DNA of 64,000 nt from Methanomassiliicoccus luminyensis B10 (GCF_000308215.1 NZ_CAJE01000012.1:504894-568893); one strand, 5' to 3'; shown: positions 19,241-63,264, counted from the stretch's first letter. The notes: generated by a model from the letters alone, not told the origin. A program made the numbers and translations.

Positions 19241-19885
19241 TCACGAAGTACTATCCGCTCGGTCCCGGGCGAGCTCCTTAGTCCGGGCCAAAGCTTCGGC
19301 CAAAACAGACAGTGTTCCCCCTCTGCATTCATGCCTCAGCTTCAGTTCAGCGGCGAACTGCCTAGATAGATCCATGTACTCTCCCATGTCGCCCCCACAC
19401 CCGTCGTCGATGAACAGTATCCTGGAGTATCCGTTGTACAACATTTCAAGGTACCAGTCGACGGTGAGGCCGAGTTCCTTGTAATTAGGCATCTCTCTCC
19501 TAAGCCATTCCTCATGCCATTCTCTGCCCTGAAGACTGAAGTAGGGAGTGTTGTAAAACGTTCCAGCGCACTTCTTCCTCTCGCGGTCGTACTCCTCCGG
19601 AGTAAGCAAGATCGCAATGCAATCATCACCAACCGGCTGCACCGTTGGGACCCGAAACTGCTTGGTGATATCCTTCAGCGAATTGCAAACACCATAGCCT
19701 AGGAGGACCGCATCCACCCTTCCTTCTAGATCGTTGACCTTTTCTATGACTGTTTTCTTCAAATTATCCGGCACCATATGAAGGCCAAACTCGAGATATT
19801 CTACGTATACGACGTCCGGATCTCCCTGTGTGAGATGATCGAGATTGCGCTTGAATGCTTCGCAGGCGATGATGCCTATTCGCAT
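19241..19885 (-). CDS. DUF1638 domain protein
   Basis: The likely start is MRIGIIACEAF (ATG at 19883-19885). The family is frequently found next to corrinoid methyltransferase genes in methanogens. Confidence 0.6.
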   Translation of the reverse strand: MRIGIIACEAFKRNLDHLTQGDPDVVYVEYLEFGLHMVPDNLKKTVIEKVNDLEGRVDAVLLGYGVCNSLKDITKQFRVPTVQPVGDDCIAILLTPEEYDRERKKCAGTFYNTPYFSLQGREWHEEWLRREMPNYKELGLTVDWYLEMLYNGYSRILFIDDGCGGDMGEYMDLSRQFAAELKLRHECRGGTLSVLAEALARTKELARDRADSTS

Positions 19886-19940
19886 TAGGCCACTCCCAGA
19901 ACGTGCACGTTTGTAGTCAAGTTCATGCCTTTCATCCCGG

Positions 19941-19954
19941 GTCGCTCTAGAGCG
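19941..19954. promoter_or_regulatory. 14-bp perfect palindrome TCGCTCTAGAGCGA in divergent promoter region
   Basis: Read from the sequence. It lies between the DUF1638 gene (-) and the ArsR-like gene (+). Confidence 0.45.
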
Positions 19955-19969
19955 ATGGAAATATTTATT

Positions 19970-19982
19970 TATGACTGAGTCA
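19970..19982. promoter_or_regulatory. 13-bp palindrome ATGACTGAGTCAT ~18 bp upstream of ArsR-like regulator start, adjacent to AT-rich TATA-like element
   Basis: Read from the sequence. Confidence 0.45.
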
Positions 19983-19999
19983 TACTTTATTATTACATT

Positions 20000-20728
20000 A
20001 TGAAGGACACAGATATCCAAAAGCAGCTGGACATCATGCACGAGGAGATCAGGAATGTGAATGCTTTCCTCTCCCGCCTCAGACCAGAAGACATCAGAAC
20101 GGTGTTCGGAGATCAGACGAAACCTATCCTGATGGAATGGATAGAAAGATTTTTCCAGCAAAGAGCACAGAAGGTAGGGAAAACTAAAGAAGATACATGT
20201 CTCAAGGCTCGACTAATCGAGGCTGTGGAGGGTACTGACCGGGCAGTGCGGGGGGAAGGCCGAGACGAGGCCAAGATGATCCTCAATCAACTCGAGGGGG
20301 ACTTTGTATCGCCATCCTCAGCGAACGACCCCGACCGCCGAAGGTTTGTGCTCGATCTCATCAGGCAGGCCAGATGGTACATCGAAGAATCCGACAGAAT
20401 GATATGGATAGCGGGTGAGCAAAGAGGGCCCGCCATAACCGACACGGGACCGCTGTCCCCGGGCACGGTGGAGGAGACCCTGGTGCCTCTGGCGAATTCC
20501 CTAAGGCTCCGGATAATGTTGATACTGTCGAAGGAGGAAGAGCGTCTGGTGGACCTATGCAGGGCGATGGAGATGCAGAAAGGGCACATCCAGTACCACC
20601 TGAAGACCCTAATGGGGCGTGGGTACATCAGGTATGACCGCAAAAGCAGACTATACTCCCTTACCGGCCGGGGCACAGTGGCCCTGGACGGGCTAGCTAA
20701 GCTGACCGATGATATTCTTTCGGCGTAA
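20000..20728 (+). CDS. ArsR-family winged-helix transcriptional regulator with ~150-aa N-terminal uncharacterised domain
   Basis: C-terminal HTH (LANSLRLRIMLILSKEEERLVDLCRAMEMQKGHIQYHLKTLMGRGYI). Confidence 0.6.
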   Translation: MKDTDIQKQLDIMHEEIRNVNAFLSRLRPEDIRTVFGDQTKPILMEWIERFFQQRAQKVGKTKEDTCLKARLIEAVEGTDRAVRGEGRDEAKMILNQLEGDFVSPSSANDPDRRRFVLDLIRQARWYIEESDRMIWIAGEQRGPAITDTGPLSPGTVEETLVPLANSLRLRIMLILSKEEERLVDLCRAMEMQKGHIQYHLKTLMGRGYIRYDRKSRLYSLTGRGTVALDGLAKLTDDILSA

Positions 20729-20893
20729 GAGCTTGATGTGAGGCAAAAGAGCTCTTGCCCTCCCAGTGTAATAAAAAAATATTACGGTTGAATCTATAAT
20801 TATTACTTATGCGCTAGGGAGAGGCATGTCTGACGGCTGCGGAAGATACGCAGAAAAGAATTCAGGCTAGACAAGTAGCCGTGAGGGCGTCCG

Positions 20894-23089
20894 ATGGGCC
20901 ATGTACACAACACGAAGATAGCGATATACGGCAAGGGCGGCATCGGCAAGTCCACTGTCAGCGCTAACCTGTCCGCTACTCTCGCTAATGACGACAAGAA
21001 AGTCCTCCAGATAGGGTGCGATCCAAAGCACGATTCTACTCGCATGCTTCTTGGTGGAGCGTCCGTTCCCACGGTCCTTGACTATATTAAAGAGATACCG
21101 GCGAGCAGCAGGAAGCTGGATGATATCCTGCGCTGCGGCTATGGAGGGACGAGGTGCGTGGAGGCAGGAGGCCCGCAGCCCGGCGTAGGATGCGCTGGCC
21201 GCGGCATACTCAGCACGTTCGAGACGCTCGCCGAGCTCGGCATCGACGATATTGAATTCAACATCACCATCTACGACGTCCTCGGCGACGTGGTGTGCGG
21301 GGGCTTCGCCGTCCCCCTGAGAAAAGAGTACGCCGACATCGTGCTCATTGTGACATCAGGCGAATACATGTCGCTGTACGCGGCCAACAACATCTTGCGC
21401 GGGGTGGCCAGCTACGACGGCGCATCCTCTAGAGTGGGTGGCATCATATTCAACGGACGTGGCCTCGTTGATGAGGGGAGAATGGTGAGGACCTTTGCTC
21501 ATGAGGTCGGTCTTCCCGTTCTCACGTCGATACCACGCAGCAATGTGTTCGCGCAGGCCGAGGCCAAAGGGTGCACGGTAGTCGAAGGGTACCCGGACTC
21601 TGCTGAGGCGGCACTGTTCAAAGAACTGGCAATTCGCGTCGAATCGTTGGCTTCCGGCCTGAGCCCGTTGTACCATGCACGACCGCTGACCGACGAGACC
21701 ATGGAGAGGGTGTTGCTTGGCAGGTGCCATGAGACTTCCGCGTTACCATACGCCCATCCCTCATCAGCACAGCCCGTACCGGCTACCACGGGGATGGGAA
21801 CGACCAAACGCAAGAGGAGTCGCATCGATGCTGACAGAATAATACATGGATGCGCCTTTGCCGGCGCCGCAGCAATCACTACCCAGGTAAGGAATGCCGT
21901 CACTGTGGTGCATGGGCCGCTCAGCTGCGCCAACGTCGCCCTATACTATATCTCTTGCAACCTCACTCGGGACCCCCCTGACCGTCTCGAAAGAGTCAGA
22001 CCGCTGCAGCGGATAGTTTCCACCGCCATGGACGAGAGGTCCATGGTATTCGGCGGCACATCCGACCTCGAGTACGTGACAAAGAAGGCACTCGAGAAGG
22101 GCTACGAGGCTGCGTTCATAATCACTACCTGCCCCTCCGGCCTAATGGGCGAGGATATCTATCCGGTCGCTAAGAGGGTAGAGAGTTCGATGCCGGCAAA
22201 AAAAGTTGTAGTAGTCCCTGCTGGCGGGAACATCCATGGTAACTTCTCCAGTGGGATCACTCTTGCCCTTGTGTCCGCCGCCTCGCTGATCGACCCATCC
22301 GTACCAAAAGAACAGGGAACCGTTAACATCGTTGGCGAGAAAAACATGGTCGCCAACAGGGACCGCAACTACAAGGCGATTGTAGAGATGCTCTCGAAGC
22401 TTGATATTAAGGTGAACTGTAGGTACATCAGCGGCGCCTCGGTGCAAGACATTGTCGGCTTCCAGAAGGGAGAGGTGTGCCTCCCCGCTAACCACGACCT
22501 GGCCACCAGGGAGACCATCTCTTTTCTGTCCTCCCGAGCGCAAGTAGAGGATTTCCCCCTCCCATTCCCCCGGGGATTCCAGGAGACTTCGGTCTGGCTT
22601 ACCGCCCTGGGTGAGAGATTCGGGAAGGAGAGGGAAGCGACCTCGCTCATCTCGGCGTGCCGGGGGAAGTACGAGAGGGAGATCAGCGCGCTGTCACCAG
22701 GACTGAAAGAAAAGAAGGTCCTATTGGCCTCCGCTGACCCCCAAATCAATTGGATCGCTGACCTCATAAGGGATCTGGGAATGGTGATGCTGAAGGCAGG
22801 TATAGTCTCGACGGGGAAGGATATCCTATCCGCCTCCTCGCCCCACCATAGCTACCAGTTGAATTATTCACTAGAGCTTCTGGAAGAGGATATCAAGATG
22901 CTCCATCCAGACCTCGTGATAGTCCAACCTTACCCAGGAGTGGAGAGCCTGGGAACGAGGTTTGCATTGATCCCGTACAACCCTGACGTAGGCATCGATG
23001 CCGGGATATCGATGGCAAATGAGTGGTCGGTCCTGATGAGGGTACCTGCCGTCGAAGGATGGCGAAAGGGAGCAGGGGTCCGTCCATGA
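20894..23089 (+). CDS. nitrogenase-like fusion protein: NifH-like ATPase (N-terminal ~290 aa) fused to NifD/NifE/CfbD-like catalytic subunit (C-terminal ~430 aa)
   Basis: N-terminus has the Walker A motif (IYGKGGIGKST) plus CAGRG and VCGGF [4Fe-4S] ligand motifs. After a basic linker (TTKRKRSRID), the C-terminus carries HGPLSCA, YISCN and ITTCPSG nitrogenase-component-1-type motifs. A single uninterrupted 731-aa ORF. Confidence 0.8.
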   Translation: MGHVHNTKIAIYGKGGIGKSTVSANLSATLANDDKKVLQIGCDPKHDSTRMLLGGASVPTVLDYIKEIPASSRKLDDILRCGYGGTRCVEAGGPQPGVGCAGRGILSTFETLAELGIDDIEFNITIYDVLGDVVCGGFAVPLRKEYADIVLIVTSGEYMSLYAANNILRGVASYDGASSRVGGIIFNGRGLVDEGRMVRTFAHEVGLPVLTSIPRSNVFAQAEAKGCTVVEGYPDSAEAALFKELAIRVESLASGLSPLYHARPLTDETMERVLLGRCHETSALPYAHPSSAQPVPATTGMGTTKRKRSRIDADRIIHGCAFAGAAAITTQVRNAVTVVHGPLSCANVALYYISCNLTRDPPDRLERVRPLQRIVSTAMDERSMVFGGTSDLEYVTKKALEKGYEAAFIITTCPSGLMGEDIYPVAKRVESSMPAKKVVVVPAGGNIHGNFSSGITLALVSAASLIDPSVPKEQGTVNIVGEKNMVANRDRNYKAIVEMLSKLDIKVNCRYISGASVQDIVGFQKGEVCLPANHDLATRETISFLSSRAQVEDFPLPFPRGFQETSVWLTALGERFGKEREATSLISACRGKYEREISALSPGLKEKKVLLASADPQINWIADLIRDLGMVMLKAGIVSTGKDILSASSPHHSYQLNYSLELLEEDIKMLHPDLVIVQPYPGVESLGTRFALIPYNPDVGIDAGISMANEWSVLMRVPAVEGWRKGAGVRP

Positions 23090-24378
23090 TAGGCATTGAC
23101 GGCTTCAGTGCCACCATACTCGCCGCCGAGGGCATCGCCGACGCCACCGTGCTGCTGAACGGACCGCTGGGCTGCAAGTACTATCAAGGTCGCTTCGCCG
23201 ATCGATGGTTCCCGAAAGATATTTTCCCAGGGAGATATGGGCATCTCTGCGATCTCAGCTACTTCGGCCAACCGCGAGTGCCGTGCACCTTCCTCGACGA
23301 GGAAGATTACATTGACGGCGCACAAGAGAAGTTGGAAGTGGCTCTTCCCATCGTTGCGAAGAGGGCGAGCGGACCGATCATAATTGTGAACTCCCCAGGG
23401 GCTGCGCTTATCGGGGACGATATCGGTCGATCCGTCCGGGAACTCGGCCTCACGGACCGTGCGATCATCATCGAGAGCCCCGCCTTCTCTGCGCCGGCGT
23501 CGCAAGGCTTCGAGGAAACGATGATGCGCGTCGTGGAGGCGTTGGTGCCAAAGAGGGCACCAGCGCCCGACAGGTCAGTGAACCTCCTTGGCCTATCGAT
23601 AATGCACAAGCATTGGCAGGGGACGGTTCTCGAACTGAAGCGCGTCCTTGGACTTATGGGCCTCGATGTAAAAGCGGTGCCGGGGGCGGGCTCCTCCACG
23701 GACGAGCTTCGTTCATCGGTCGACGCGTCGCTCAACATAGTGCTGTGCCCGGAGTACGGTGCGAAGCTGGCGCGATACTATAAGGAGGAGCACGGGACGT
23801 CTTACCTGGTACCGTCGAAAGGAGCACCCCTGGGCTTCGATGCCACGGAATGCTTCATCCGCGAGGTGGCCTCAGCGATGAAAATGGATCCATCACCGGC
23901 GCTGCGCGATCTGCAGGCGTCGATGAATCGAGCGGCCCAAGTCCTGGCGCGATGCGCCTCCAGATTAAATTCGGTTAAAGGATCGACGTTCGCTCTCCGC
24001 GCCGACAGTTCTATCGCCTATCCGCTCACAGAGTGGCTCTACTCATACATGGGGATGTGGCCAGAGGCCGTCGAGCTGCTACCGCGCTCAGACCCCCTGT
24101 TCAGCGAGAAGCTCCGATCGTTCCTAGAGACTATCGGCGCGATTGATGCATTGATGAGGCCGGTGGAATCGACCCCTGCCGACACGGTATTCGCAGAAGG
24201 AAGGCTGGTGGAACAGCTGAAGGAGGAGGGGCAATGCATCGCCGGAGTGGATATCGCCATGCCTGAAGGCGAGCATATCTGCTTCGCTCCGAGAACCCAT
24301 TGGGGATCGGTCGGACCGCTATACCTCCTGGAAGAGATGGTCAACGACCTGGTATGGGGGAGCGAAGACTCGGCGTAG
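23086..24378 (+). CDS. nitrogenase component 1-type oxidoreductase (NifK/NifN/BchB-like partner subunit)
   Basis: NGPLGC motif. ~430 aa. The start overlaps the stop of the fusion gene (ATGA), so the two are likely co-translated. Confidence 0.7.
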   Translation: MIGIDGFSATILAAEGIADATVLLNGPLGCKYYQGRFADRWFPKDIFPGRYGHLCDLSYFGQPRVPCTFLDEEDYIDGAQEKLEVALPIVAKRASGPIIIVNSPGAALIGDDIGRSVRELGLTDRAIIIESPAFSAPASQGFEETMMRVVEALVPKRAPAPDRSVNLLGLSIMHKHWQGTVLELKRVLGLMGLDVKAVPGAGSSTDELRSSVDASLNIVLCPEYGAKLARYYKEEHGTSYLVPSKGAPLGFDATECFIREVASAMKMDPSPALRDLQASMNRAAQVLARCASRLNSVKGSTFALRADSSIAYPLTEWLYSYMGMWPEAVELLPRSDPLFSEKLRSFLETIGAIDALMRPVESTPADTVFAEGRLVEQLKEEGQCIAGVDIAMPEGEHICFAPRTHWGSVGPLYLLEEMVNDLVWGSEDSA

Positions 24379-24568: not shown

Positions 24569-25219
24569 ATGAAAAATCCATGGGAAGAGATTGAACTGGT
24601 GGACTACGAGAACCATATGAAGTTAAGTTCGGTTTTGCAACATCAAACAATGAACATTATGATGAAAAAACAGCTTTACCAGTATCCCGCCGGAGTAATT
24701 ATGATATTAGGTATTGCGGGCGGAAACGGTTTGGAGCATATCGATCCTCGAATAATAAAGAAAGTGTATGGTGTTGACATAAACAAGGTATATTTAGAAG
24801 AGTGCGAAAAGCGCTATCCGCAACTAAACGGGAAACTACATCTTTTTTGCGTTGATTTATTGGGAGATGTTGCCACATTACCATATGCGGATCTAGTTGT
24901 TGCGAATCTACTGTTAGAATACATTGGATGTGCTTGCTTCCAAAAAGTGATAAAATGGGTTGAACCCAGATATGTGTCCTGTATCATTCAGATTAACACC
25001 GATGCATGTTTTGTATCCGAATCGCCCTACAGTCATGCATTTGACGGCCTAAGTAGAGTATATCATAAAATAGAGGAGCGATCGCTCATAAGGGCCATGG
25101 AGAACATAGATTATTGTGTAGTTTTAAGAGAGGAAATCAGTTTGCCTAATCATAAAAAACTGGTTAGATTAGATTTTGAGCAGCAAATAAAAAATATTAG
25201 CGAGCGCAGGCGGTCCTGA
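24569..25219 (+). CDS. class I SAM-dependent methyltransferase
   Basis: Motif I (IMILGIAGGNGLE) and motif II (VYGVDIN). The gene lies in a conspicuously AT-rich ~0.9 kb patch. Confidence 0.7.
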   Translation: MKNPWEEIELVDYENHMKLSSVLQHQTMNIMMKKQLYQYPAGVIMILGIAGGNGLEHIDPRIIKKVYGVDINKVYLEECEKRYPQLNGKLHLFCVDLLGDVATLPYADLVVANLLLEYIGCACFQKVIKWVEPRYVSCIIQINTDACFVSESPYSHAFDGLSRVYHKIEERSLIRAMENIDYCVVLREEISLPNHKKLVRLDFEQQIKNISERRRS

Positions 25220-33818: not shown

Positions 33819-35498
33819 ATGGATTTCGATAGGAAGATATACTTTGGAGATTACAGGTGTACGAATCTCAAGAAGTTGGCAGCATACATCGAGGAGCTGA
33901 ACGAAACAATCGAGCCGTTGTTCGATGCGCACCCTTTATTTAAGGGAGAGTACGCACTCGATTACTACGAATATTTGAGTAGATGTGAGTTGAACAGCGA
34001 ACCTATCGAACCCAAAAAGGTGTTCGAGTACATCGCTCCACTATACTCGAATCTTCCAGATTGGCGCAATCCGGGAACCATGATTAATGTTATCCCAGCC
34101 GTTAATCTAGTTTCAGCGGCCACATCTAGTGTCACTCAGATGTTCAATCCGAATTTTGCTCAGGACACGTATTCCGGAAACCTCACACTTGCCGAACTCG
34201 AGTCTGTCAAGTATCTTTCGCAGATAATCGGATGGGACTGGGAGAAGAGTTGCGGTGTGTTCACTTTCGGAGGCACGGGAACTAACATGTACGCCACGAA
34301 GCTTGCATTATGTAACGCCGATGCAGAGTCTGGAAAGTACGGGGCAGTCAAGGGAAGGTACTTCACGCTTACCAGCAAGAATGGTCATCCAACTCATTAC
34401 CAGATCTGTGACTGGCTTGGGATCGGGAGCGACAGCTGCATCGAGATTGAATGCAATCCCGACGGAAGGATTAATGTTTCCGAAGTGAAAAGGGTCATCC
34501 GCGAGAACATCGAGGTTGGGAGGACATTTCTCGGCTACAATATGACTGGCGGAAGTACCAACGAGCTTATCGTGGATCCGATTAAGGAGATCTATGACCT
34601 CAATGACGAGATAGTGAAAGATTACGACCTGCCGTACAAGCCCATGATCCATGTGGATTCGGTGTTGGGTTGGATATTCTTGTTTTTCAGATATTACGAC
34701 TTCGAAAAGAATCCTAATGATTATCCAGATGATGTCTTGAAACGGATTAAGTCCATGTACGACCATGTTTTCGAGTTTAAATATGCCGATACATTGGGCG
34801 TTGATTTCCATAAGACTGGTTTCTGCCCATATATCACCAGTGCGTTTGTGGTGAAGGACCGGTCCAAATTCTTTAATCTCAACCCGTCCACTTCGATCGA
34901 TTTAAAGGATATGAAGTATGGGGATTACAATCCATTCTACACATCGTTGGAGTACTCCAGAACGGGTGTCGGACCTATGGCTGCACTTACGTGTCTAAAG
35001 TCGCTAGGCACCAATTCATTCTGTAAATTGGTGGGCGATCTTGTTTTGGCGACACACATTTTCAGGAAGAGATTGAAGGACAACCCGCATGTGTTCATGC
35101 TCAGTGATGGGTCGGAAGGATTTGCTACACTGTTCCTTCTCGTTCCACCTAGGTACGGAAAACTGACATATAGTACGGTCTTTAGTCTTACTGATGGGCA
35201 GACCAAGGAAATCAAGGATTACAATACCAGGTATGGGAAGTTCGTCCTTCGCGAATGTATAGAAAGAAAAACTAATTTCTTATTCACATCTTCCAGAAGC
35301 TATACGTTGCCTGGGACTGATATAAAGATAGGCGCCATCAAGGCATATCCATTTTCGATATTCCTTACAGAAGAGAATGCCGAGGTATTGGCCAAAGAGG
35401 TTGGTGAAAGCATCCAGAGATTTACAGACCAAGATGGCGATCAGGCATGCACTAGAGACGAGTATTTTGTGGACATGACAACTGCGGGCAAGAAGTGA
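33819..35498 (+). CDS. PLP-dependent group II amino-acid decarboxylase-like protein (559 aa)
   Basis: Conserved decarboxylase lysine context (LGVDFHKTGFCPY) and an upstream GTGTNMYA region. Confidence 0.65.
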   Translation: MDFDRKIYFGDYRCTNLKKLAAYIEELNETIEPLFDAHPLFKGEYALDYYEYLSRCELNSEPIEPKKVFEYIAPLYSNLPDWRNPGTMINVIPAVNLVSAATSSVTQMFNPNFAQDTYSGNLTLAELESVKYLSQIIGWDWEKSCGVFTFGGTGTNMYATKLALCNADAESGKYGAVKGRYFTLTSKNGHPTHYQICDWLGIGSDSCIEIECNPDGRINVSEVKRVIRENIEVGRTFLGYNMTGGSTNELIVDPIKEIYDLNDEIVKDYDLPYKPMIHVDSVLGWIFLFFRYYDFEKNPNDYPDDVLKRIKSMYDHVFEFKYADTLGVDFHKTGFCPYITSAFVVKDRSKFFNLNPSTSIDLKDMKYGDYNPFYTSLEYSRTGVGPMAALTCLKSLGTNSFCKLVGDLVLATHIFRKRLKDNPHVFMLSDGSEGFATLFLLVPPRYGKLTYSTVFSLTDGQTKEIKDYNTRYGKFVLRECIERKTNFLFTSSRSYTLPGTDIKIGAIKAYPFSIFLTEENAEVLAKEVGESIQRFTDQDGDQACTRDEYFVDMTTAGKK

Positions 35499-36343
35499 AT
35501 AATGTGAAGAACGATGCTTTGATGAATAATTTGTCCGAAGAGATACAGCGCCTGAAAGATTACTTGTTGAACGATTTGTTTTCATTGAAAATCACGTGTA
35601 TCACTGCATTCGGCAACTGTGTCCGTAACGCGACCACAGTGCCGAATTATTCGGACGTGGACATCGTAGCTTATTCGGATATGGTGAGCTATGAGAACAT
35701 AGACCTGATACTGAGGACGATTTACGGATCATACAAAGATTTCTGTGATAAACCGCCGAGGTTTATCACAGACTCCATAGCTCCTCGCATAGAATGGTTT
35801 ATGCGGATTAATGATGTCAAATTTGATCTCAATCTCATGCCCACCTATCTCCCCGGATATGAAAGGATGATGGTCGATCCAGTCCATGATACGGTCGATA
35901 TAATTATTGGAGCGATGTATCTGAATGCAATAACGCTCCATGGGGAGATACCATTCAGGCAGCTCGTCGAATCGGAGATGATTCCATTTTATAATGATGA
36001 GCTGAGGCTTAACAGGATGAAGATACTGGGGGGGAGGATTGATGAACAATTGAGCATAATCGAAGGCATTCAGGACGGTGATGGCGAGAATGTGTTGTAT
36101 TACACATTCAAAACCCAGGCATATGTGACAAAATGGATTTTCATCGCTTGTCGTAAGTACCCTCTCGATGCCCAAAGGCATCTCGGAACGCAGCTCGCAG
36201 GACTGGAATGTATGTCTTCGGAGGAGATTGAGAGCATTATGTTGAAGAACGGTGAGAATATAAAGGCGATTGTTTGGAATTTCATCAAAGGAACGAGAGA
36301 AGTCATGATTAGGTTAGGCAGACCCTCAGAGGTCGAAGAATGA
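35495..36343 (+). CDS. putative nucleotidyltransferase (Pol-beta-like NTase fold)
   Basis: GN/GS-x(9-13)-DxD-like motif (FGNCVRNATTVPNYSDVDIVAY). Translationally coupled to neighbours (4-nt overlaps). Confidence 0.45.
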   Translation: MNNVKNDALMNNLSEEIQRLKDYLLNDLFSLKITCITAFGNCVRNATTVPNYSDVDIVAYSDMVSYENIDLILRTIYGSYKDFCDKPPRFITDSIAPRIEWFMRINDVKFDLNLMPTYLPGYERMMVDPVHDTVDIIIGAMYLNAITLHGEIPFRQLVESEMIPFYNDELRLNRMKILGGRIDEQLSIIEGIQDGDGENVLYYTFKTQAYVTKWIFIACRKYPLDAQRHLGTQLAGLECMSSEEIESIMLKNGENIKAIVWNFIKGTREVMIRLGRPSEVEE

Positions 36344-37218
36344 TTGTAGAGCATGAATATGACGGAAAAAAGGTATTCATACTAGCTTGTTCCAGTTGCA
36401 ATGTTGTTTGCAAACATTGCTACATCAATTTTAAAGGTGATATGGGCCTAGAGAAACTTGTAACGACCATATACGCTCTCAAAGATAGATATGTGCTCAA
36501 TATCACTGGAGCGGAACTGCTGATTGATTCTGAATACGTTCGGAGAATAACTGAATCCAATCAGAAAGGGTTTATGACTAACGGTCTCGCTCTTTATAAG
36601 AACGTCAATCTGTTGGATAAACTCTTAGAATGGGGCGTGAAATACGTGGCCCTTTCATACCACCATATGGTTCAGGAAGAGTATTCACCCATTCCAAAAT
36701 ACAAGGTGGAATGGGTGATTAAGGAATTGATAACAAGAAGAATAGACGTGAGCCTTATGTCCACAGTGACGAAGGTAAACTATGACAAGATTGACGATGC
36801 CTGCAGAATCGCAGAATCGCTCGGGGCCAAAAGGATACATTTCACCAATTTCACGGCGCAGGGCAATGCTCGTAAGATATCTGACATGTGGAAACTGAAT
36901 GATAAGGAGATTCAGGTATTTTTTGAGAGATATCGCGAATGTGTGGAGAACTATCCAAATCTCATTGTGGAGAAGTGTTGCAGTTTCGGTAAAGATGTTA
37001 ACGAGCCCTGTGCACAAGTATGTGCTGCTGGAAAGGACAAGGTCGCGATCACTCCTGATGGAAACGTATATCCCTGTTTCTTCCTTGCCGAAAAAGGAAA
37101 TGAGATCGGGCGTTTCGATAATGGCATTATAACCATCTTCCGTGAGATCGACTGGGATGGGACAGATTGTCTTTCGAAGCGTGTTCTCAACTACAACGGG
37201 GCGCTAAATTATAAATGA
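36340..37218 (+). CDS. radical SAM enzyme with C-terminal SPASM/twitch-like Cys-rich domain
   Basis: CSSCNVVCKHC contains Cx3Cx2C. A C-terminal CAQVCAAGKDKVAITPDGNVYPCFF motif is present. Confidence 0.8.
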   Translation: MIVEHEYDGKKVFILACSSCNVVCKHCYINFKGDMGLEKLVTTIYALKDRYVLNITGAELLIDSEYVRRITESNQKGFMTNGLALYKNVNLLDKLLEWGVKYVALSYHHMVQEEYSPIPKYKVEWVIKELITRRIDVSLMSTVTKVNYDKIDDACRIAESLGAKRIHFTNFTAQGNARKISDMWKLNDKEIQVFFERYRECVENYPNLIVEKCCSFGKDVNEPCAQVCAAGKDKVAITPDGNVYPCFFLAEKGNEIGRFDNGIITIFREIDWDGTDCLSKRVLNYNGALNYK

Positions 37219-37432
37219 ATGTTGTCTGAGCGGTTTCATGCGCCCGTTTCACATGGATGAGAATCCTTCTTGACGCAATTGGTAGCGATGGGATATCAGG
37301 ATACGACTCACCAGTCACGGGGTCCAAGGTGGCGCGATATTTGCCTGATTTAATCCGAGATATTATATGGCAATAGATGGTGATGCCTCTTAGCAAACCT
37401 TTTTTCATTATCTATCATTCTGGAGTTAGGGA

Positions 37433-38212
37433 ATGAGAAGAATCGCTATCTATGGCAAGGGCGGCATAGGGAAGTCTACGACAGCATCCAATATTTCCTC
37501 GGCATTATCTGAAGTTGGATTGAAAGTGATGCAGATTGGGTGTGACCCCAAAGCTGATTCAACCCGAATATTGACGCATGGAAAAATACCGACGGTACTC
37601 GATGCTCTCTACAGCAAAGGTCATCCTGAACTGAAAGACATAATATTCGAAGGAGACAATGGAATCCTTTGTGTGGAATGCGGTGGGCCGCGTCCTGGAG
37701 AAGGATGCGCTGGCAGGGGGATAATCGCCGCGTTCGAGAAGATCGAGGAGCTTAAAGCTGTTGAGGCATACAAACCAGACGTAATATTGTACGATGTCCT
37801 CGGTGATGTGGTCTGTGGCGGCTTTGTCATGCCGATACGTAATGGGTATGCAAAGGATGTGTTTGTGATATCCTCGGGCGAGATGATGTCGCTTTATGCT
37901 GCATCAAATATAATCAGTGCCGTCAATACCATGTCGTACATGGGCTATGCCAAATTCGGAGGCATCATTCAGAATTCACGCGGCATCGTGAATGAGGATG
38001 CGATTGTGAATAAGGTTGCCGTGGAGATGGGGGCCGATGTAATCTATAGGCTCCCTAGGAGTCCAGTGGTCCAATCCTGCGAGAATGCTGATAATTCTGT
38101 CGTTTTTGGTGCACCGCAATCATACATGGCTTCGGCATACAGAGAATTATCTAAAGTTATCTTGAAACGCACCGAAGATATTGCTGGAAAAATGAAACTT
38201 TGTATTCAATAA
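37433..38212 (+). CDS. NifH-like ATPase/Fe protein homolog (CfbC/BchL/NifH family)
   Basis: Walker A (IYGKGGIGKSTT), switch regions, and both [4Fe-4S] Cys ligand motifs (CAGRG, VCGGF). 259 aa. Confidence 0.85.
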   Translation: MRRIAIYGKGGIGKSTTASNISSALSEVGLKVMQIGCDPKADSTRILTHGKIPTVLDALYSKGHPELKDIIFEGDNGILCVECGGPRPGEGCAGRGIIAAFEKIEELKAVEAYKPDVILYDVLGDVVCGGFVMPIRNGYAKDVFVISSGEMMSLYAASNIISAVNTMSYMGYAKFGGIIQNSRGIVNEDAIVNKVAVEMGADVIYRLPRSPVVQSCENADNSVVFGAPQSYMASAYRELSKVILKRTEDIAGKMKLCIQ

Positions 38213-39132
38213 TGTCCGATGGTAAGATGGTTCCCGTGGAAGACAGAAACCCCAGGATATATGCAAAATGTGCGATTGCAATGCCGTTCTTGGCTAGTAG
38301 ACACACACAAGCTTTGGAGCTGTGCATGAAGTCGATTCTGAGATACGGTCCCGAATCCATGGACATATTCATATCTGTGGATGCTAAAGGGTCTGTATCT
38401 GACATATTTCCGAAGGAAAGAATCCAGTCCATCAGCGATAGGATAAATATCATCCCTCTTGATGATAAAAATTACAAGCAGGCGTTGCTAAATTACATGG
38501 CATCGCTGGATTATGACTACACATATGTAATCCATAGTGATGTTTTCTTTACGGGAAATAAGGCCTTAAATAAGCTTTTGAAAGCATTGGTAGATAAGTC
38601 GGATGCTGTGTTGAGTTACTATGATGTTCCGTTATGCATACATGAAAGTACCTATCATATGAGCGGGGAGTCCAAACGTAAATACGTGTTGTCTCCGCGC
38701 GTCAGTACATGGATTATGTGTTTCAATGTTGGAAATTACAGAAAGATAAAGAAGAAATACGGTATGAAGATTGATTTTGTCCGTGTATGGATGAATCTTA
38801 ATGACGATTACTTCGAAGAATACAATCAGTGGATGAGGAGCCAGAAAGAATTTGATTTGATATATAGCTCCTTTCCGTTCGATGAGTATATGGTGGATAT
38901 CGGCGGACTCATTAAATACCAGATAGACACGGGGAACGTAAATGGAGTGTCCGTTGGTTCGGAGTCTAATCCGGATTTCAACTCCATGAATCTGAACAAA
39001 AGGTCCGACGAGTATGTCCATATTGAACAATTTGATCCATCGCGTTACAATGATAGATTGTATTCCAAGGGTTTGTTAGATACGAGGGCCAATCAGATAA
39101 AAGATTACATGAAGAGAAACTACCCGGAGTGA
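38200..39132 (+). CDS. hypothetical protein (possible GT-A-like fold), island-specific
   Basis: 310-aa ORF between the NifH-like and NifD-like genes, AT-rich codon usage, no motif confidently recognised. Confidence 0.4.
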   Translation: MYSIMSDGKMVPVEDRNPRIYAKCAIAMPFLASRHTQALELCMKSILRYGPESMDIFISVDAKGSVSDIFPKERIQSISDRINIIPLDDKNYKQALLNYMASLDYDYTYVIHSDVFFTGNKALNKLLKALVDKSDAVLSYYDVPLCIHESTYHMSGESKRKYVLSPRVSTWIMCFNVGNYRKIKKKYGMKIDFVRVWMNLNDDYFEEYNQWMRSQKEFDLIYSSFPFDEYMVDIGGLIKYQIDTGNVNGVSVGSESNPDFNSMNLNKRSDEYVHIEQFDPSRYNDRLYSKGLLDTRANQIKDYMKRNYPE

Positions 39133-39136
39133 GTTA

Positions 39137-40381
39137 ATGTACTGCGAGCCATTCAAATCATGTTACTTATTCGGTTCGCTTAGAATCGTGTCGAATTTCA
39201 AGAATTGTGTTTATCTGATCAATGGACCTTCAGGATGTGCCTTTTTCTGTAGGAACTCTGTTTTGTTGCTCAATGGATACACACATATGCCTTATTCAGT
39301 GAATCTGCCAAGGATATTTACCACCAATCTGACTGATAAGGATGTGGTGTTCGGTTCCACAGATAGATTGGAAGAGGATGTGCTGGAGATCGATGTCAAA
39401 TACAATCCAGATGCCATATTTATTTTCAATTGTTGTGTTTCTGAGATTATCGGCATGTATATTGAAGATTTGGAGAAGAAACTAGAAAAAATAACGAAGG
39501 CTAAGATTATTGCTGTTCCAAGCGCCGGCTTTAAAGGGGATCATAAGATAGGCATGAAGGTTGCGAATAAAAAAATCTTCGAAAAGGTCGTTAAGCGCCC
39601 CACTATGAAGGTTCCGTATTCGGTCAATATACTTGGCGATGCGGATAGATTTGGGCACACGACGAAAGAACTCAGGTCATTCCTAGATGAAAACAACATC
39701 AGCATCATCACCAGTATCCCCGGAGATGTGGATATGAAAAGTGTCTCGGAATCATCCGAGGCGTCCTTGAATATCATCGTTTGCGGTACTGCGGGATATG
39801 GTATGGCCAAACTTTACTTAGAGGAATATGGCGTCCCGTTCGTGGGAGGTCAATCGTCGGTATTCGGAATTAATCACACGTTCGAACTTTACAAAGCAAT
39901 ACTCGACCACTTCGGTAAGTCCTTGGATGACCTGGAACAAAGAAGACAGACTGCATTTGATAACATCAGAAGATTCAGAACAGAATTGTCAGATAAGAAA
40001 GCATTCATCATCGCGGGTGCACGCAGATCCTTTGGATATGCCGCTCTTTTGAAAGAGCTTGGGATGTCGGTGGAATACATATTCACGGAATCTAATGATT
40101 GTGTTCTGAGGGAAGAAGATGCCCTGAGAATGATATCTAAACAAATAATATATGATGAATGGGATGAAGAGTTACGTAACCGTATAAGAATGAAAAGGCC
40201 GGATCTGGTTCTCTCCACGCTGCCGGAGTTGATCATTCCTGAAAAATACGTCTCCAGGACACTAGATGATTTTGCTGGATTCTCCGGTGCAGAGAGATTT
40301 GCCCAGTATATCTACGATACGATAATATTGCAAAAAATGGAAGAAGTAGTATTCATCCGGGCCAAGGATGACAATCTCTGA
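39137..40381 (+). CDS. nitrogenase component 1-type oxidoreductase (NifD/NifE/CfbD/BchN-like)
   Basis: INGPSGCAFFC and FNCCVSE Cys motifs in a ~410-aa alpha/beta Rossmann-like repeat architecture. Confidence 0.8.
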   Translation: MYCEPFKSCYLFGSLRIVSNFKNCVYLINGPSGCAFFCRNSVLLLNGYTHMPYSVNLPRIFTTNLTDKDVVFGSTDRLEEDVLEIDVKYNPDAIFIFNCCVSEIIGMYIEDLEKKLEKITKAKIIAVPSAGFKGDHKIGMKVANKKIFEKVVKRPTMKVPYSVNILGDADRFGHTTKELRSFLDENNISIITSIPGDVDMKSVSESSEASLNIIVCGTAGYGMAKLYLEEYGVPFVGGQSSVFGINHTFELYKAILDHFGKSLDDLEQRRQTAFDNIRRFRTELSDKKAFIIAGARRSFGYAALLKELGMSVEYIFTESNDCVLREEDALRMISKQIIYDEWDEELRNRIRMKRPDLVLSTLPELIIPEKYVSRTLDDFAGFSGAERFAQYIYDTIILQKMEEVVFIRAKDDNL

Positions 40382-40396
40382 CTAGCATCGTTCAAT

Positions 40397-41038
40397 TCAG
40401 AGGAGGTCTTGAAGAGAATTGATGCATGTGCATCCTGTCAATTCTTTGCAAAAGATTCCACTCAGGCGATTTATAATGACGCAATCAATGTTCGCATACG
40501 CTGATGCCATAACGTCTTCTTGCTCATTTCCTACATAAACAGTACGCTTTGCATTATACGTCTCATATAGTCCCATGCATTTTAAAATTGGAGAGGGGTC
40601 GGGTTTGTGAATCTCAGTGTCTTCGAATCCGATTATGTGGTCAACGTATTGAATCATGTTATCTCGTCTCAATAATTCTTCGACCTTCCATCTTTTTTTA
40701 CCTGTGACTATGGAAACGTTCTTGCCCAACGATTTTAGGGATTTCAGAACCATTAACGAATCGGGGAAAGGCACGGATTTCAGATATGAATCACAGACGA
40801 CTTCGTTGAAAATTTTCATGTATGTTTCAGTCTCTGTCCCTCCCAGCCCGTAATATCCGCATATATACTCTGGGGATTTTCCAATGAACTCCGGCACCAT
40901 ATCCTCAGAAAGATAGATATTCATACCGTCAAGCGCCAATCTCAGAACGTGGTACACATCCATGATTTTATCATACAAAGTGTAATCGAAATCGAACAGA
41001 TATGTATCGTACTTCTGCATAAGAGTTATACTCCTTAT
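40397..41038 (-). CDS. HAD-superfamily hydrolase/phosphatase
   Basis: The start is taken at MQKYDTYLFDFDYTLYD (a DxDxT motif 8 aa from the N-terminus). Downstream motif pattern is KxxxxxxxxGNEQEDV. An AGGAG RBS lies upstream. Confidence 0.65.
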   Translation of the reverse strand: MRSITLMQKYDTYLFDFDYTLYDKIMDVYHVLRLALDGMNIYLSEDMVPEFIGKSPEYICGYYGLGGTETETYMKIFNEVVCDSYLKSVPFPDSLMVLKSLKSLGKNVSIVTGKKRWKVEELLRRDNMIQYVDHIIGFEDTEIHKPDPSPILKCMGLYETYNAKRTVYVGNEQEDVMASAYANIDCVIINRLSGIFCKELTGCTCINSLQDLL

Positions 41039-41063
41039 ATCCAAAAATATATTTGGCGCATAG

Positions 41064-42791
41064 ATGCGACCTAAGTTGAACTTCGAATTATTGAAATCCA
41101 ATCTATTGACCATAGCATCCATAACAGGTATAGATTCGTTTGTCGTTCGCGGCAAGTATAGCATTTATCTCCTGTCCCAGGATGTTGCAGATGGTATGAT
41201 AGATATCATTGTGAAACCACATATCTTCAATTATTGTGTGGAATCGCTCCCACGCAATGATATCGGTTGTTTTCGGTATCAGATGTGCTTTAGAGGTCGC
41301 AGATATGATGCAGTTCAAATAAAGATCCCATGTGCGATTGTACGGTTGATCGCCATGGATGATGATACGGACTATTGTCTAATAAATTATGATGTGTGTT
41401 CAATAAAGTATCCTTCGATGGAAATCGAAAACGTATGCGAGTTGAAAGAAGAGTGTCATATACTACCGGGCGATATCTGTCCTCTTCCTGGAAGTCCGTT
41501 TGAAATCATTCGAAGAATCATCGGGTCTGCTTTTATATCCGACACAGAGGAATCTGAAGACAACATAGTACGTTGCATCGAATCCGTTTTACAGATGGCA
41601 TCGTTTCGTAAGATATGTGACGAATATTTTGATTTGATAGCTCCGCTGAACTGTTTGGAAATGATATGTAGCTGTAGATACTTGGGAGACTGTTCGATGC
41701 GCGATCTGTTGATCCACATCATTCGTAAGATCATTCCAAAAGCTGACATATCGTTTGTGTCGGACTATATAGATAATATGAAATCGGAACGCACAATTGG
41801 TGCTATTCCGAGCCCGGATTTTGAAGATACAGATTTCTTATTCATACTAGATCGCATGTATGAAATATTTAAGAAGGGCAATGTGGATTGCTATGAGAAT
41901 CTTTGTTTAAGATTCGCCCACATATCCGGCATCGATTCCAAATCCGAAATCCGCTCTGTGGGAATTGGACATTCTGACGACCTCAAATTCGAAGTAGTGA
42001 ACGGAAATGAACACTCCTTTGTGCGAGTATGTACGGGCGTATCTGAGAAGAGACTCGAATGCATCAAAGAGCTGTCTTCTAGAAATGGTGAAGGGAAGCT
42101 GACGGATGTTATTCGTATCAAAAATCTAGACGTATTGGTTTTTGAATGGATCGACGGAAGGTCTGTTCGCGATGTGATGAATGGAACAACAAATCGCGAG
42201 CATTTTTACTGGGGTTATAGATCAGGAATTAAACTGAAGAAACTACACGAAATCCCATTATTCGCTAAACCTGATGTTAGTAATTTCGTGAAAAGTCTGA
42301 ATGATTTGCTCGACCGCTGCAGGTATTTTTCAGAAGCTATTCCAGGCTATGATAGAATAGTGTCTCGTATACACCAGTACTTACCCAAAATAACAGAAGC
42401 TGATTTTGCTATTTGTCACGGAGATTACAATGTTGACAACATACTTGTCTCCAATCAGGAGTTAATGGTGATAGATTTCGAATATTCCCGGATTGGAAGT
42501 GTATATGAAGATGTGGACACCTTGATGCTATTTGATGGATACGATCCTTACTTCTCTGCAGGTATGATCTATGGATATTGTGGCGGATTCGGAGATCAAA
42601 GCTTTTGGAGAAATTTATCATTCTATCACAATGTTTACCTGTTGAATTATTACTGTAGGACATTCGTATATAATTACGGCAACATGGCATTATTACATCG
42701 AGTCGATGAATATAATTACAAATATTGCGAGGATGGGCAAGGAGTCCCGGGGTGGTTCGTCAAAATCCTCGATGAAATGGCATTGCTATGA
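41064..42791 (+). CDS. aminoglycoside/choline-kinase-like phosphotransferase (APH fold) with ~270-aa Cys-rich N-terminal region; start uncertain
   Basis: C-terminal catalytic motifs (ICHGDYNVDNILV and MVIDFEYSRIG). Confidence 0.6.
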   Translation: MRPKLNFELLKSNLLTIASITGIDSFVVRGKYSIYLLSQDVADGMIDIIVKPHIFNYCVESLPRNDIGCFRYQMCFRGRRYDAVQIKIPCAIVRLIAMDDDTDYCLINYDVCSIKYPSMEIENVCELKEECHILPGDICPLPGSPFEIIRRIIGSAFISDTEESEDNIVRCIESVLQMASFRKICDEYFDLIAPLNCLEMICSCRYLGDCSMRDLLIHIIRKIIPKADISFVSDYIDNMKSERTIGAIPSPDFEDTDFLFILDRMYEIFKKGNVDCYENLCLRFAHISGIDSKSEIRSVGIGHSDDLKFEVVNGNEHSFVRVCTGVSEKRLECIKELSSRNGEGKLTDVIRIKNLDVLVFEWIDGRSVRDVMNGTTNREHFYWGYRSGIKLKKLHEIPLFAKPDVSNFVKSLNDLLDRCRYFSEAIPGYDRIVSRIHQYLPKITEADFAICHGDYNVDNILVSNQELMVIDFEYSRIGSVYEDVDTLMLFDGYDPYFSAGMIYGYCGGFGDQSFWRNLSFYHNVYLLNYYCRTFVYNYGNMALLHRVDEYNYKYCEDGQGVPGWFVKILDEMALL

Positions 42792-59137: not shown

Positions 59138-59192
59138 CCCCCTAACGTTCGTTCCAGGTGCATGTACGAATCGCATCCGATTATTTATACCA

Positions 59193-59211
59193 GCTGGATG
59201 ATACATCCAGC
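59193..59211. promoter_or_regulatory. 19-bp perfect palindrome GCTGGATGATACATCCAGC directly downstream of TATA-like TTATTTATA, upstream of cbiA
   Basis: Read from the sequence. It shares the 15-bp core TGGATGATACATCCA with the palindrome at 10898-10918. Confidence 0.6.
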
Positions 59212-59259
59212 GACGTTGGCCCGGGGTCCGCCGGGCACTTCCGGACGGAGGAAAGGACG

Positions 59260-60612: not shown

Positions 60613-60613
60613 G

Positions 60614-62419: not shown

Positions 62420-63264
62420 AGTGCGTGATGGTGCAGGGCACCAGCTCCGGCGCGGGCAAGACCACCGTCGCCGCGCTGCTGTGCCGGCACTTCGCCCGGC
62501 AGGGCCTGAGGGTCGCGCCGTTCAAGGCCCAGAACCTGTCGCTGAACTCCTTCGTCACCGCCAGGGGCGAGGAGATGGGCATCTCGCAGGCGTTCCAGGC
62601 ATGGGCCTGCGGGCGCGAGCCGGAGGGGGACATGAACCCCATCCTGCTGAAGCCCCGCTCCGAGGGGAGCTGCCAGATCATACTGTCGGGAAGGCCGTAC
62701 GCCGACGTGGGGCGAGGGGGTGCGACGGCCCACCGCGAAGCGCTGCTGAAAGCAGTGAGGGAGTCCTATGGCCGGTTGGCCGCATCGAACGATGTGGTGA
62801 TCATAGAGGGTTCCGGCTCCCCGGCGGAGATCAACCTGCGTTCGACGGACATTGCCAATATGACCACCGCGGAGATGGCGCGAAGCCCGGTGATACTGGT
62901 AGGGGATATCGAGCGCGGCGGGGTGTTCGCCGCCGTCTACGGCACCTATGGGCTGCTGGAGGAGCGCCACCGCGACCTGGTCAAGGCGTTCGTGATAAAC
63001 CGCTTCAGGGGGGACGCGTCCATCCTGGGGCCGGGGATGGCGAAGCTGCAGGACCTCATGAAGGTGCCCTGCCTGGGAGTATTGCCGTTCGTGGACCTCC
63101 GCTTCCCCTCCGAGGACAGCCTTGACCTCGGCCGGCAGCAGGGCCGGGGGGCGTCGGGGGAGGACATCAGGGAGGCCTGGCTGAAGAACCTTGACCAGTT
63201 CTACGATACGTCCCGCTCGCACATCGACTACGGGATCTTGGAAGCCATCGTGAACGGGCGCTGA
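62416..63264 (+). CDS. CobQ/CobB/MinD-type nucleotide-binding domain protein (CobQ N-domain paralog lacking glutaminase domain)
   Basis: Walker A (GTSSGAGKTT). Alignable to the ATPase half of the upstream cobQ, but it stops at ~280 aa. 4-nt overlap with cobQ. Confidence 0.65.
   Translation: MKCVMVQGTSSGAGKTTVAALLCRHFARQGLRVAPFKAQNLSLNSFVTARGEEMGISQAFQAWACGREPEGDMNPILLKPRSEGSCQIILSGRPYADVGRGGATAHREALLKAVRESYGRLAASNDVVIIEGSGSPAEINLRSTDIANMTTAEMARSPVILVGDIERGGVFAAVYGTYGLLEERHRDLVKAFVINRFRGDASILGPGMAKLQDLMKVPCLGVLPFVDLRFPSEDSLDLGRQQGRGASGEDIREAWLKNLDQFYDTSRSHIDYGILEAIVNGR

Follow-up and report, generated by a model that had tools for sequence, protein, structure and literature searches.

The window analysed here, a stretch of 64,000 nucleotides from Methanomassiliicoccus luminyensis B10 (GCF_000308215.1, NZ_CAJE01000012.1:504894-568893), carries on its plus strand a two-gene nitrogenase-like (NFL) system, HD-K, in which an Fe protein and a catalytic subunit form one polypeptide. 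The first gene, HD (20894-23089), is an uninterrupted open reading frame (ORF) of 731 residues that encodes an Fe-protein domain (H), a linker and an alpha-type catalytic domain (D). The second, K (23086-24378, plus strand), encodes a 430-residue subunit of the NifK/N/BchB type. A preliminary description of this DNA had proposed a single-polypeptide NifH-NifD/E fusion of 731 residues, and the reading frame, all the motifs it had quoted (GKGGIGKS of the P-loop, CAGRG, VCGGF, TTKRKRSRID, HGPLSCA, YISCN and ITTCPSG) and the Pfam domains bear this out. The profile search that it had suggested delimits both parts of the protein, with Fer4_NifH aligning to residues 8-273 (E 6.6e-87) and Oxidored_nitro to residues 320-676 (E 8.6e-57), and with such E-values the matches are far beyond chance. 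Both H and D are complete domains within one polypeptide.

An error of sequencing or assembly could give such a reading frame, through loss of a stop codon or a frameshift that joins neighbouring nifH-like and nifD-like genes. In related organisms, separate H and D genes do lie 60 nt apart (locus L076) or overlap by 22 nt (L078), where a single error could in principle merge them. Against this, at least nine separately assembled contigs from ENA and JGI metagenomes encode the identical 731-residue protein in the same gene context, and a homolog with 73% identity to the HD protein (P0002, locus L084) is fused alike and has the same neighbours. Nearly all of the 120 best database matches, among 5.8 billion proteins, are likewise fused, with one or two NifH domains, as are 60 genome loci, and their linkers have many lengths. 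The fusion therefore passes the check for read-through that the preliminary description had called for, and we reject the artefact, which independent assemblies already refute and whose probability is negligible. The M. luminyensis protein WP_019177180.1 sits in the 90% cluster of the HD protein.

The H domain (20915-21712, plus strand; residues 8-273) is a complete NifH-type ATPase with a P-loop, switch regions and the [4Fe-4S] ligands Cys100 and Cys135. We judged conservation within the HD protein from 99 aligned homologs with a single H domain. The segments GKGGIGKS, CDPKHDST and DVLGDVVCGGF are invariant among them, as are four cysteines, C42, C88, C100 and C135, which include the two cluster ligands. 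The AlphaFold2 (AF2) model of the H domain superposes on solved NifH chains with a target-normalised template modelling (TM) score of 0.91 and a root mean square deviation of 2.0 Å, at about 42% identity. Across the whole HD model, the matches listed by Foldseek against the PDB fit the NifH-type domain alone, and none spans more than about one-third of the model.

The linker that follows (21713-21847, plus strand; residues about 274-318) contains the short basic segment TTKRKRSRID to which the preliminary description had drawn attention. The segment is present here, but as one form of a linker whose length varies between 39 and 132 residues and whose sequence is not conserved across the homologs. 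Disorder is predicted for it, with an AF2 predicted local distance difference test (pLDDT) value below 50 at residues 280-317. Both domains on either side are confidently folded in the AF2 model of HD (mean pLDDT 86, predicted TM score (pTM) 0.68).

The D domain (21848-23086, plus strand; residues 319-731) is of the NifD/E type and holds three invariant cysteines, C320, C345 and C413. In a phmmer alignment they pair with the VnfD cysteines at chain positions 49, 75 and 138, which we take to be the alpha-subunit P-cluster ligands of V-nitrogenase. A fourth cysteine, Cys509, is family-specific and 97% conserved. The segment aligned to the cofactor ligand C257 of VnfD falls near H534 and has the family consensus LNLxAxxD. 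The family alignment holds no conserved cysteine at the ligand position of the FeMo or FeV cofactor (NifD C275/VnfD C257). A match made by eye, of NifD Cys275 with C529, was replaced by the phmmer alignment, and neither position is a conserved cysteine. Among solved structures, the nearest relative of the D domain by sequence is MarD (9d9u/9fmg, E 1.6e-17), followed by VnfD, NifD, NifE and BchN.

The start codon of K (ATG at 23086) overlaps the stop codon of HD (TGA at 23087-23089; ccATGAt), and this ATG is preceded, 8-18 nt upstream, by the purine-rich GGGAGCAGGGG. Both the ATGA overlap and the assignment of the next gene as a second component-1-type subunit with the motif NGPLGC had been noted before, and they are confirmed here by the gene coordinates and by a Pfam match to Oxidored_nitro (E 1.1e-42). 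Cys30, within NGPxGC, is the only invariant cysteine of K (42 of 42 K partners), and the remaining two beta-subunit P-cluster positions are never cysteine in the same 42 proteins. By its best NCBIfam and PDB relatives, K is closest to BchB of dark-operative protochlorophyllide oxidoreductase (DPOR). Cys30 aligns with position 36 of BchB, in an alignment that is short and low-scoring and rests mainly on the shared xGPxG(C/D) motif. We take this position to be the Asp ligand of the NB cluster in wild-type DPOR (Muraki et al. 2010). Three cysteines from D and one from K match the ligand pattern of the bridging [4Fe-4S] site of DPOR and chlorophyllide oxidoreductase (COR), not of an [8Fe-7S] P-cluster. 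Judged by its sequence, HD-K thus has the features of an NFL system, namely a NifH-type ATPase and a PF00148 alpha/beta pair with a putative bridging Fe-S site, except that in place of a separate Fe-protein homodimer that docks and dissociates it has an H domain covalently joined to D.

The fusion is no rarity of this genome. Scanning one genome per species with a D-domain profile returned 70 loci, of which 60, 28 of them archaeal and 32 bacterial, encode H and D in a single ORF. The lineages with the fusion are Methanosarcinales, Methanomicrobiales, Methanomassiliicoccales, Clostridia, Deltaproteobacteria, Chloroflexi and Spirochaetes; hosts include Methanolobus, Methanococcoides, Methanospirillum, Methanoregula, Clostridium, Marinisporobacter, Syntrophomonas, Urinicoccus, Christensenella, Desulfobacterales and termite-gut spirochaetes, and members of the family are present in Methanosarcina acetivorans (AAM05435.1/Q8TP84) and M. 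barkeri. At the 42 loci where simple ORF calling resolved the downstream gene, it is of the K type, about 430 residues long, and overlaps HD or follows it closely.

Two sister architectures accompany the fusion. About 23 of the top 120 matches are H-H-D proteins of 1080-1106 residues, in which two complete tandem NifH domains precede D (P0013, P0019 and some 20 others; loci L075 and L079-L082) and K is the next gene. In their AF2 models all three domains fold, the H1-H2 linker being short and the H2-D linker long (pTM 0.52). An exhaustive search with the D domain also recovers unfused full-length D proteins, at loci ordered H (275-277 residues), D, K. On one archaeal contig (L076-L077) the unfused H-D-K genes are followed by DUF134, two NifX/NafY-like Nitro_FeMo-Co genes, DUF169 and an ARMT1-like gene, a context unlike that of the fused forms. 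The clade spans H/D/K, HD/K and HHD/K, and the catalytic cycle should therefore tolerate a permanently tethered donor, with the H dimer working in cis.

Earlier literature had touched on this architecture. In Dos Santos et al. 2012 the fusion is remarked on in a single sentence, marked 'data not shown', and the tree was built after the fused sequences had been taken out; a 'fused nifH/nifE' is also listed by Borrel et al. 2014, with 'Ca. M. intestinalis' among the taxa. The fused nifH/nifE that has a nifN-like gene after it in these two papers is the same architecture in the same taxa (Archaea, Firmicutes and Deltaproteobacteria); unlike the present analysis, they give no ligand analysis, gene context, H-H-D forms or function. 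UniProt names the Methanosarcina proteins of the family 'NifH/NifE'. In a 2026 Chemical Reviews survey (PMC13474568) the words 'fused' and 'fusion' are absent and the Fe protein is separate in every characterised system described. The premise of the preliminary description, that the Fe protein is a separate component in all characterised nitrogenase-like systems, holds for those covered by this review. Its view that the fusion is unusual stands among characterised systems and falls for the family at large, given 60 fused loci. It had also allowed that such fusions might already be a named and characterised family: a name exists, and the literature on the fusion yielded the two passing mentions of 2012 and 2014 and no characterised member or functional study. 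The fusion belongs to a widespread family that had been noticed before and, as far as the literature found shows, not characterised; the inferences new here are its likely role in cobamide metabolism, the 3+1 cysteine site and the H-H-D sister forms.

We were interested in what the genes around HD-K say about its function. Neighbouring ORFs were clustered across the 70 loci, representatives were annotated, and markers were counted within 10 kb. As B12-specific we took cobalamin riboswitches, CbiZ, CobN/ChlID, CbiK, CobA-type adenosyltransferase, CobD-like proteins and CobQ. A B12-specific marker is present at 39 of the 60 fused loci, and the number rises to 44 for any tetrapyrrole or uptake marker, once Btu-type and energy-coupling factor (ECF) uptake genes are added; we judged this association qualitatively. 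Methanosarcinales and Methanomicrobiales have a same-strand operon in the order CbiZ-ChlI-ChlD-(xylose-isomerase-like TIM barrel)-Peripla_BP_2 (BtuF-like)-FecCD-ABC ATPase-HD-K-CbiK-CobN, and in one Methanomassiliicoccaceae genome the divergent neighbours are CobD, CbiB, CbiS/CbiZ and CobS. A spirochaete locus (L044) has the order CobB(CbiA)-HD-K...CobD-CobQ-CobA, and Christensenella encodes a CobA-type adenosyltransferase directly after K. An H-H-D locus (L081) continues from K into a TonB-dependent receptor, Peripla_BP_2 (BtuF-like) and FecCD. Chelatases of class I or CbiK type (CbiK, CobN/ChlID) share the HD-K operon at no fewer than 16 loci.

In Gram-positive cocci, the ECF energising components come first, and HD-K follows downstream with SLH/DUF4430 surface proteins on one side and an ECF S-component on the other. 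The large SLH/DUF4430 proteins are co-transcribed in Gram-positive HD-K operons (L034, L038/L039, L055, L031 and L053) that also carry ECF parts and stand under cobalamin riboswitches, and one of these proteins has a weak alpha/alpha-toroid match. From sequence, the SLH/DUF4430 proteins of HD-K operons look like cell-surface corrinoid-binding proteins.

Cobalamin riboswitches (Rfam RF00174) are present at 15 of the 32 fused bacterial loci. They stand directly upstream of HD in three (L007, L014 and L065), at the head of same-strand gene strings that run into HD-K in four (L033, L034, L038 and L055), and further upstream on the same strand in two (L016 and L048, with an opposite-strand ORF between in L048); the remainder are elsewhere within 10 kb. 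Riboswitch control can also mark a B12-independent isozyme, a reading that we consider unlikely here, HD-K being inside transport and salvage operons.

On these grounds we propose that HD-K is a corrinoid/tetrapyrrole reductase driven by ATP, its Fe protein tethered, which serves cobamide salvage or biosynthesis, and we put the probability of this reading at roughly 55%. In such a two-gene NFL reductase, the H domain would be tethered to D by a flexible, unconserved linker, and D would pair with K. In an (HD)2K2 assembly, each HD chain would contribute its H domain to a dimer formed around one [4Fe-4S] cluster; in the H-H-D sister form both H domains of the dimer would lie within one chain. 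With hydrolysis of ATP, the H dimer would deliver low-potential electrons one at a time to the D/K cluster, and from there they would reach the bound tetrapyrrole. The tether would keep the donor at its acceptor and may force one catalytic half to act at a time, because (HD)2K2, with one H per chain, would have only one H dimer for two catalytic halves. The substrate would be a corrinoid, imported or newly made, since both the family-wide gene context and the cobalamin riboswitches point that way.

The least certain step is the reaction itself, for which we prefer an ATP-driven reduction of Co(II) to Co(I) before adenosylation, feeding CobA/CobO and then CbiZ or CbiP. In cobamide metabolism CbiA acts before adenosylation, CobA/CobO performs it and CbiP acts after it, and CbiZ acts on adenosylcobinamide. 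Reduction of Co(II) to Co(I) takes place at low potential, and in other organisms ATP-coupled activases carry it out. This reaction is favoured because the gene contexts converge on steps around adenosylation and because imported corrinoids need reduction first. In its specific form, the proposal is that HD-K is the missing ATP-driven corrinoid reductase of anaerobes, which would prepare imported cobinamide or cobalamin, or else cob(II)yrinic acid a,c-diamide, for adenosylation by CobA/CobO by taking the cobalt from Co(II) to Co(I); stated so narrowly it is doubtful. If true, HD-K would be the first nitrogenase-like enzyme to reduce the metal and not the ring of a tetrapyrrole, and the first whose Fe protein never leaves its partner, so that component dissociation would not be obligatory in the superfamily; the (HD)2K2 stoichiometry would then enforce alternating half-site turnover.

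Several observations weigh against a corrinoid reductase. The case for a function is drawn entirely from sequence and gene context. The locus in the window has no transporters, chelatases or riboswitches, and its only corrinoid link is a DUF1638 gene; the M. barkeri locus has no B12 neighbours, 16 of the 60 loci show none, and a search of the H-H-D and unfused loci examined gave no cobalamin riboswitch. Transporters of the FecCD/Peripla_BP_2 type take haem and siderophores as well, and a Co(II)/Co(I) reductase would leave the frequent chelatases (CobN/ChlID and CbiK) without an explanation. The inter-domain geometry of the AF2 models is not confident (pTM 0.68 for HD and 0.52 for H-H-D), so that docking in cis and half-site action are proposals. 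The characterised tetrapyrrole NFL enzymes (DPOR, COR and CfbCD) reduce ring carbons, not the metal (PMC13474568).

This last point, which covers every tetrapyrrole NFL enzyme known, speaks for a different chemistry, in which HD-K reduces a ring C=C bond, as DPOR, COR and CfbCD do, in a cobalt-bearing or metal-free tetrapyrrole or in a salvaged oxidised precursor that CbiK or CobN/ChlID would metallate, giving a cobamide precursor or an undescribed tetrapyrrole cofactor. The 3+1 cysteine pattern matching DPOR/COR, the closeness of K to BchB and the chelatases within the operon favour it too, as does the CobB/CbiA-type a,c-diamide synthase directly upstream of HD in the spirochaete locus, an arrangement parallel to CfbB-CfbCD. 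Yet the ring-reduction steps of the canonical anaerobic B12 pathway are all assigned, and the family's strongest and widest association is with systems that import finished corrinoids, and with CbiZ and CobA, whose substrates are complete corrin rings; control by cobalamin riboswitches further argues against a product other than a cobamide. We hold ring reduction to be the main alternative, though the less probable of the two. A nitrogenase, a NifEN-type scaffold or a methylthio-alkane reductase (MAR)-type sulfur-compound reductase with a carbide-containing cluster would suit the closest solved relatives of the D domain and the database name 'NifH/NifE'. Such an enzyme is very improbable, since K has one of the three beta-subunit P-cluster cysteines, the cofactor-ligand segment has its LNLxAxxD consensus in place of a conserved cysteine, the scores on the Nif/Vnf/Anf/NifE equivalog models are 65-85 bits against cut-offs of 486-874, and no NifB-like or sulfur-metabolism family is found among the conserved neighbours.

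The host being a methanogen, HD-K could be the CfbCD of coenzyme F430 biosynthesis, or a paralog that makes a modified F430, and the best NCBIfam match of the H domain is indeed the CfbC model (NF033200). Its score of 317.8 bits lies below the cut-off of 402 bits, however, and the D domain reaches 30.7 bits against the 268.4 required by the CfbD model (TIGR03282). CfbD is described as acting without a K-type partner (PMC13474568), whereas a K gene adjoins HD here; the 32 bacterial members of the 60 fused loci come from non-methanogens; and Borrel et al. 2014 place the M. luminyensis F430 cluster of NflD, NifH-like and MurF-like genes under other accessions. A role in F430 synthesis is accordingly the least probable of the functions considered, and barely credible. 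The preliminary description had suggested comparing HD-K with an unfused NifH/NifD pair elsewhere in the window (37433-40381) and deciding which one is the CfbCD ortholog. Neither is: the pair scores 313.7 bits on CfbC and 45.8 bits on CfbD, so that both systems fall below the CfbC cut-off and far below that of CfbD, and orthology is rejected for both on the curated cut-offs.

The window's own neighbourhood adds little. Its flanking genes (MATE, MarR, DUF1638, ArsR, methyltransferase, flavodiiron and V4R) do not recur beside HD-K in the 70 loci, apart from DUF1638 and ArsR, which stand as a pair in L084, the closest relative. Function is accordingly read from the family, the local context contributing little to it. 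Pfam confirms the ArsR-type regulator and the DUF1638 gene that had been recognised upstream. The DUF1638 gene (19241-19885, minus strand; PF07796, E 1.7e-29) encodes 214 residues on four independent contigs; its mechanically called ORF reaches back to a TTG at 20161, and metagenome gene calls give 214 residues. The regulator (20000-20728, plus strand; 242 residues) is of the ArsR/SmtB winged-helix type, with a helix-turn-helix (HTH) at residues 159-226 (Pfam HTH_5, E 3.7e-8) preceded by a long N-terminal domain of unknown function, and it falls below the cut-off of the NCBIfam model HTH_metalloreg. The module of DUF1638 (minus strand), ArsR-type HTH protein (plus strand), HD and K is conserved in L084, including the position of the regulator; DUF1638 is kept beside HD-K in both of these Methanomassiliicoccus-type genomes.

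In Phaeobacter, DUF1638 and a RamA-like protein are required for B12-dependent methionine synthesis, and the role of DUF1638 has been interpreted as part of the reactivation of cob(II)alamin to cob(I)alamin (PMC5764234, PMC12478193). By this analogy, DUF1638 is the sole local hint of a corrinoid link, and it would point in the same direction as the family-wide context.

Two AT-rich inverted repeats lie in the promoter regions. I1 (19960-19994), a candidate operator/promoter, has the core ATGACT-g-AGTCAT at 19971-19983 and TATTAC at its end, and I2 (20768-20806), an imperfect repeat upstream of HD that is a candidate archaeal promoter/operator, reads GTAATA...TATTAC...TATTAC. The intergenic region between DUF1638 and the regulator is 86% identical to that of L084, and the I1 block is almost invariant. 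Both species share the ATGACTgAGTCAT palindrome together with TATTAC, a motif found again upstream of HD, the blocks that contain it being kept in L084. Over the promoter regions (19886-19999 and 20729-20893 of the window; 1236-1348 and 2087-2330 of L084), the intergenic identity of 86% compares with 73% for the protein. The palindromic operators proposed in the preliminary description thus gain modest support from conservation between two species, and the ATGACTgAGTCAT palindrome and the TATTAC repeats are candidate operators for the ArsR-type regulator.

Downstream, a methyltransferase-like ORF (24569-25219; GC content at third codon positions (GC3) 0.40), which we do not count as part of the system, had been suggested as a tailoring enzyme. 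This suggestion has no support: the ORF has only sub-threshold Pfam matches to class I methyltransferases (E 4e-4 to 5e-3) and is absent from the L084 locus, and it is probably a separate insertion outside the operon. The GC3 of HD-K is about 0.69, compared with 0.85-0.91 in neighbouring housekeeping genes, a contrast compatible with horizontal acquisition of the module. The segment 18000-25300 (MarR, DUF1638, ArsR, HD, K and the methyltransferase-like ORF) has a GC content of 0.46-0.60 and a GC3 of 0.40-0.72, and the aminoacyl-tRNA synthetase genes that flank it have a GC3 of about 0.9, a difference that suggests that the module came in by horizontal transfer.

The unfused NifH/NifD pair belongs to a second nitrogenase-like system, within an AT-rich island (33819-42791) with a GC content of 0.40-0.47 against about 0.62. 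The island comprises a radical SAM/SPASM gene (36340-37218), a free NifH-like gene (37433-38212), an ORF of 310 residues and unknown function (38200-39132), a NifE/D-like gene encoding 414 residues (39137-40381) and a kinase-like gene (41064-42791), together with a PLP-decarboxylase-like gene and an unknown 282-residue ORF. Its radical SAM neighbour recalls the Group VI NFL loci of Elusimicrobia, a distinct clade in which separate H, D and (K) genes lie among many radical SAM genes. No radical SAM gene flanks the fused operon in the window, and radical SAM proteins are absent from the conserved neighbour families of the 70 loci, which were not screened specifically for radical SAM genes. Elsewhere in the window, a cobamide or F430 amidation cluster (59158-63264) encodes a CobB/CbiA-type a,c-diamide synthase, with a nearly equal score on the CfbB model (487.7 bits, the cut-off being 560), a CobQ of 606 residues with a Cys-rich N-terminal extension of about 115 residues, and a further CobQ-like ORF.

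In the textbook nitrogenase cycle, the Fe protein docks, hydrolyses ATP, transfers one electron and dissociates. The H-D and H-H-D fusions, beside their unfused sister forms, offer a natural comparative system for the question whether dissociation is needed in all NFL systems, which the 2026 review raises (PMC13474568). They are also attractive targets for cryo-electron microscopy, because the complex cannot fall apart. A link to B12 would add cobamide metabolism to the roles of NFL enzymes in N2 fixation and in the metabolism of chlorophyll, F430 and sulfur compounds, and HD-K might fill the unassigned step of corrinoid reduction in anaerobes. Genetic tools are established for Methanosarcina acetivorans and M. 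barkeri, and the presence of the family in both makes HD-K genetically tractable. The main barrier in the field, according to the review, is that genetically tractable hosts are too few (PMC13474568).

Among known systems, DPOR and COR resemble HD-K in several respects: a NifH-type ATPase with an inter-subunit [4Fe-4S] cluster, a heteromeric PF00148 pair and three cysteines from the alpha-type subunit (N/Y) plus one beta ligand, Asp or Cys from B/Z (putative here), genes beside a class I chelatase (CobN/BchH-type + ChlI/D), and a substrate that is probably a tetrapyrrole in both cases. They differ in that the Fe protein of HD-K is fused to the alpha-type subunit, and HD-K scores 192-200 bits (H), 26.6-44.6 bits (D) and 85 bits (K) against cut-offs of 324-490 for the BchL/N/B and BchX/Y/Z models. 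The hosts of HD-K are non-phototrophic anaerobes, and its context is cobamide uptake and synthesis with cobalamin riboswitches, not photosynthesis genes. RamA and RACE share with HD-K its proposed chemistry, the ATP-coupled delivery of a low-potential electron to take corrinoid Co(II) to Co(I), and the DUF1638 partner is, by gene neighbourhood, a conserved divergent neighbour of HD-K in this lineage. Their fold is unrelated to that of HD-K and they act on protein-bound corrinoids, on which, to our knowledge, no NFL enzyme acts.

MarHDK (9d9u, 9fmg) provides the solved relative closest to D by sequence, and its Fe protein MarH can be superposed on the model of the H domain. The cofactors of MAR are of the P-cluster and L-cluster types, and the enzyme depends on MarB/NifB (PMC13474568), whereas HD-K has one cysteine in K, no cofactor ligand and no NifB-type or sulfur-metabolism neighbour among the conserved families. 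Nitrogenase and NifEN likewise differ from HD-K, their six P-cluster cysteines being divided three per subunit, whereas K keeps Cys30 alone. CfbCD has the best-matching model for the H domain, and both systems occur in methanogens; it has a single catalytic subunit type and is confined to methanogens and anaerobic methanotrophic archaea (ANME), whereas HD-K includes K and is present in many bacteria. CfbC is reported to form a persisting complex with CfbD (PMC13474568), and the HD fusion makes an association of this kind permanent.

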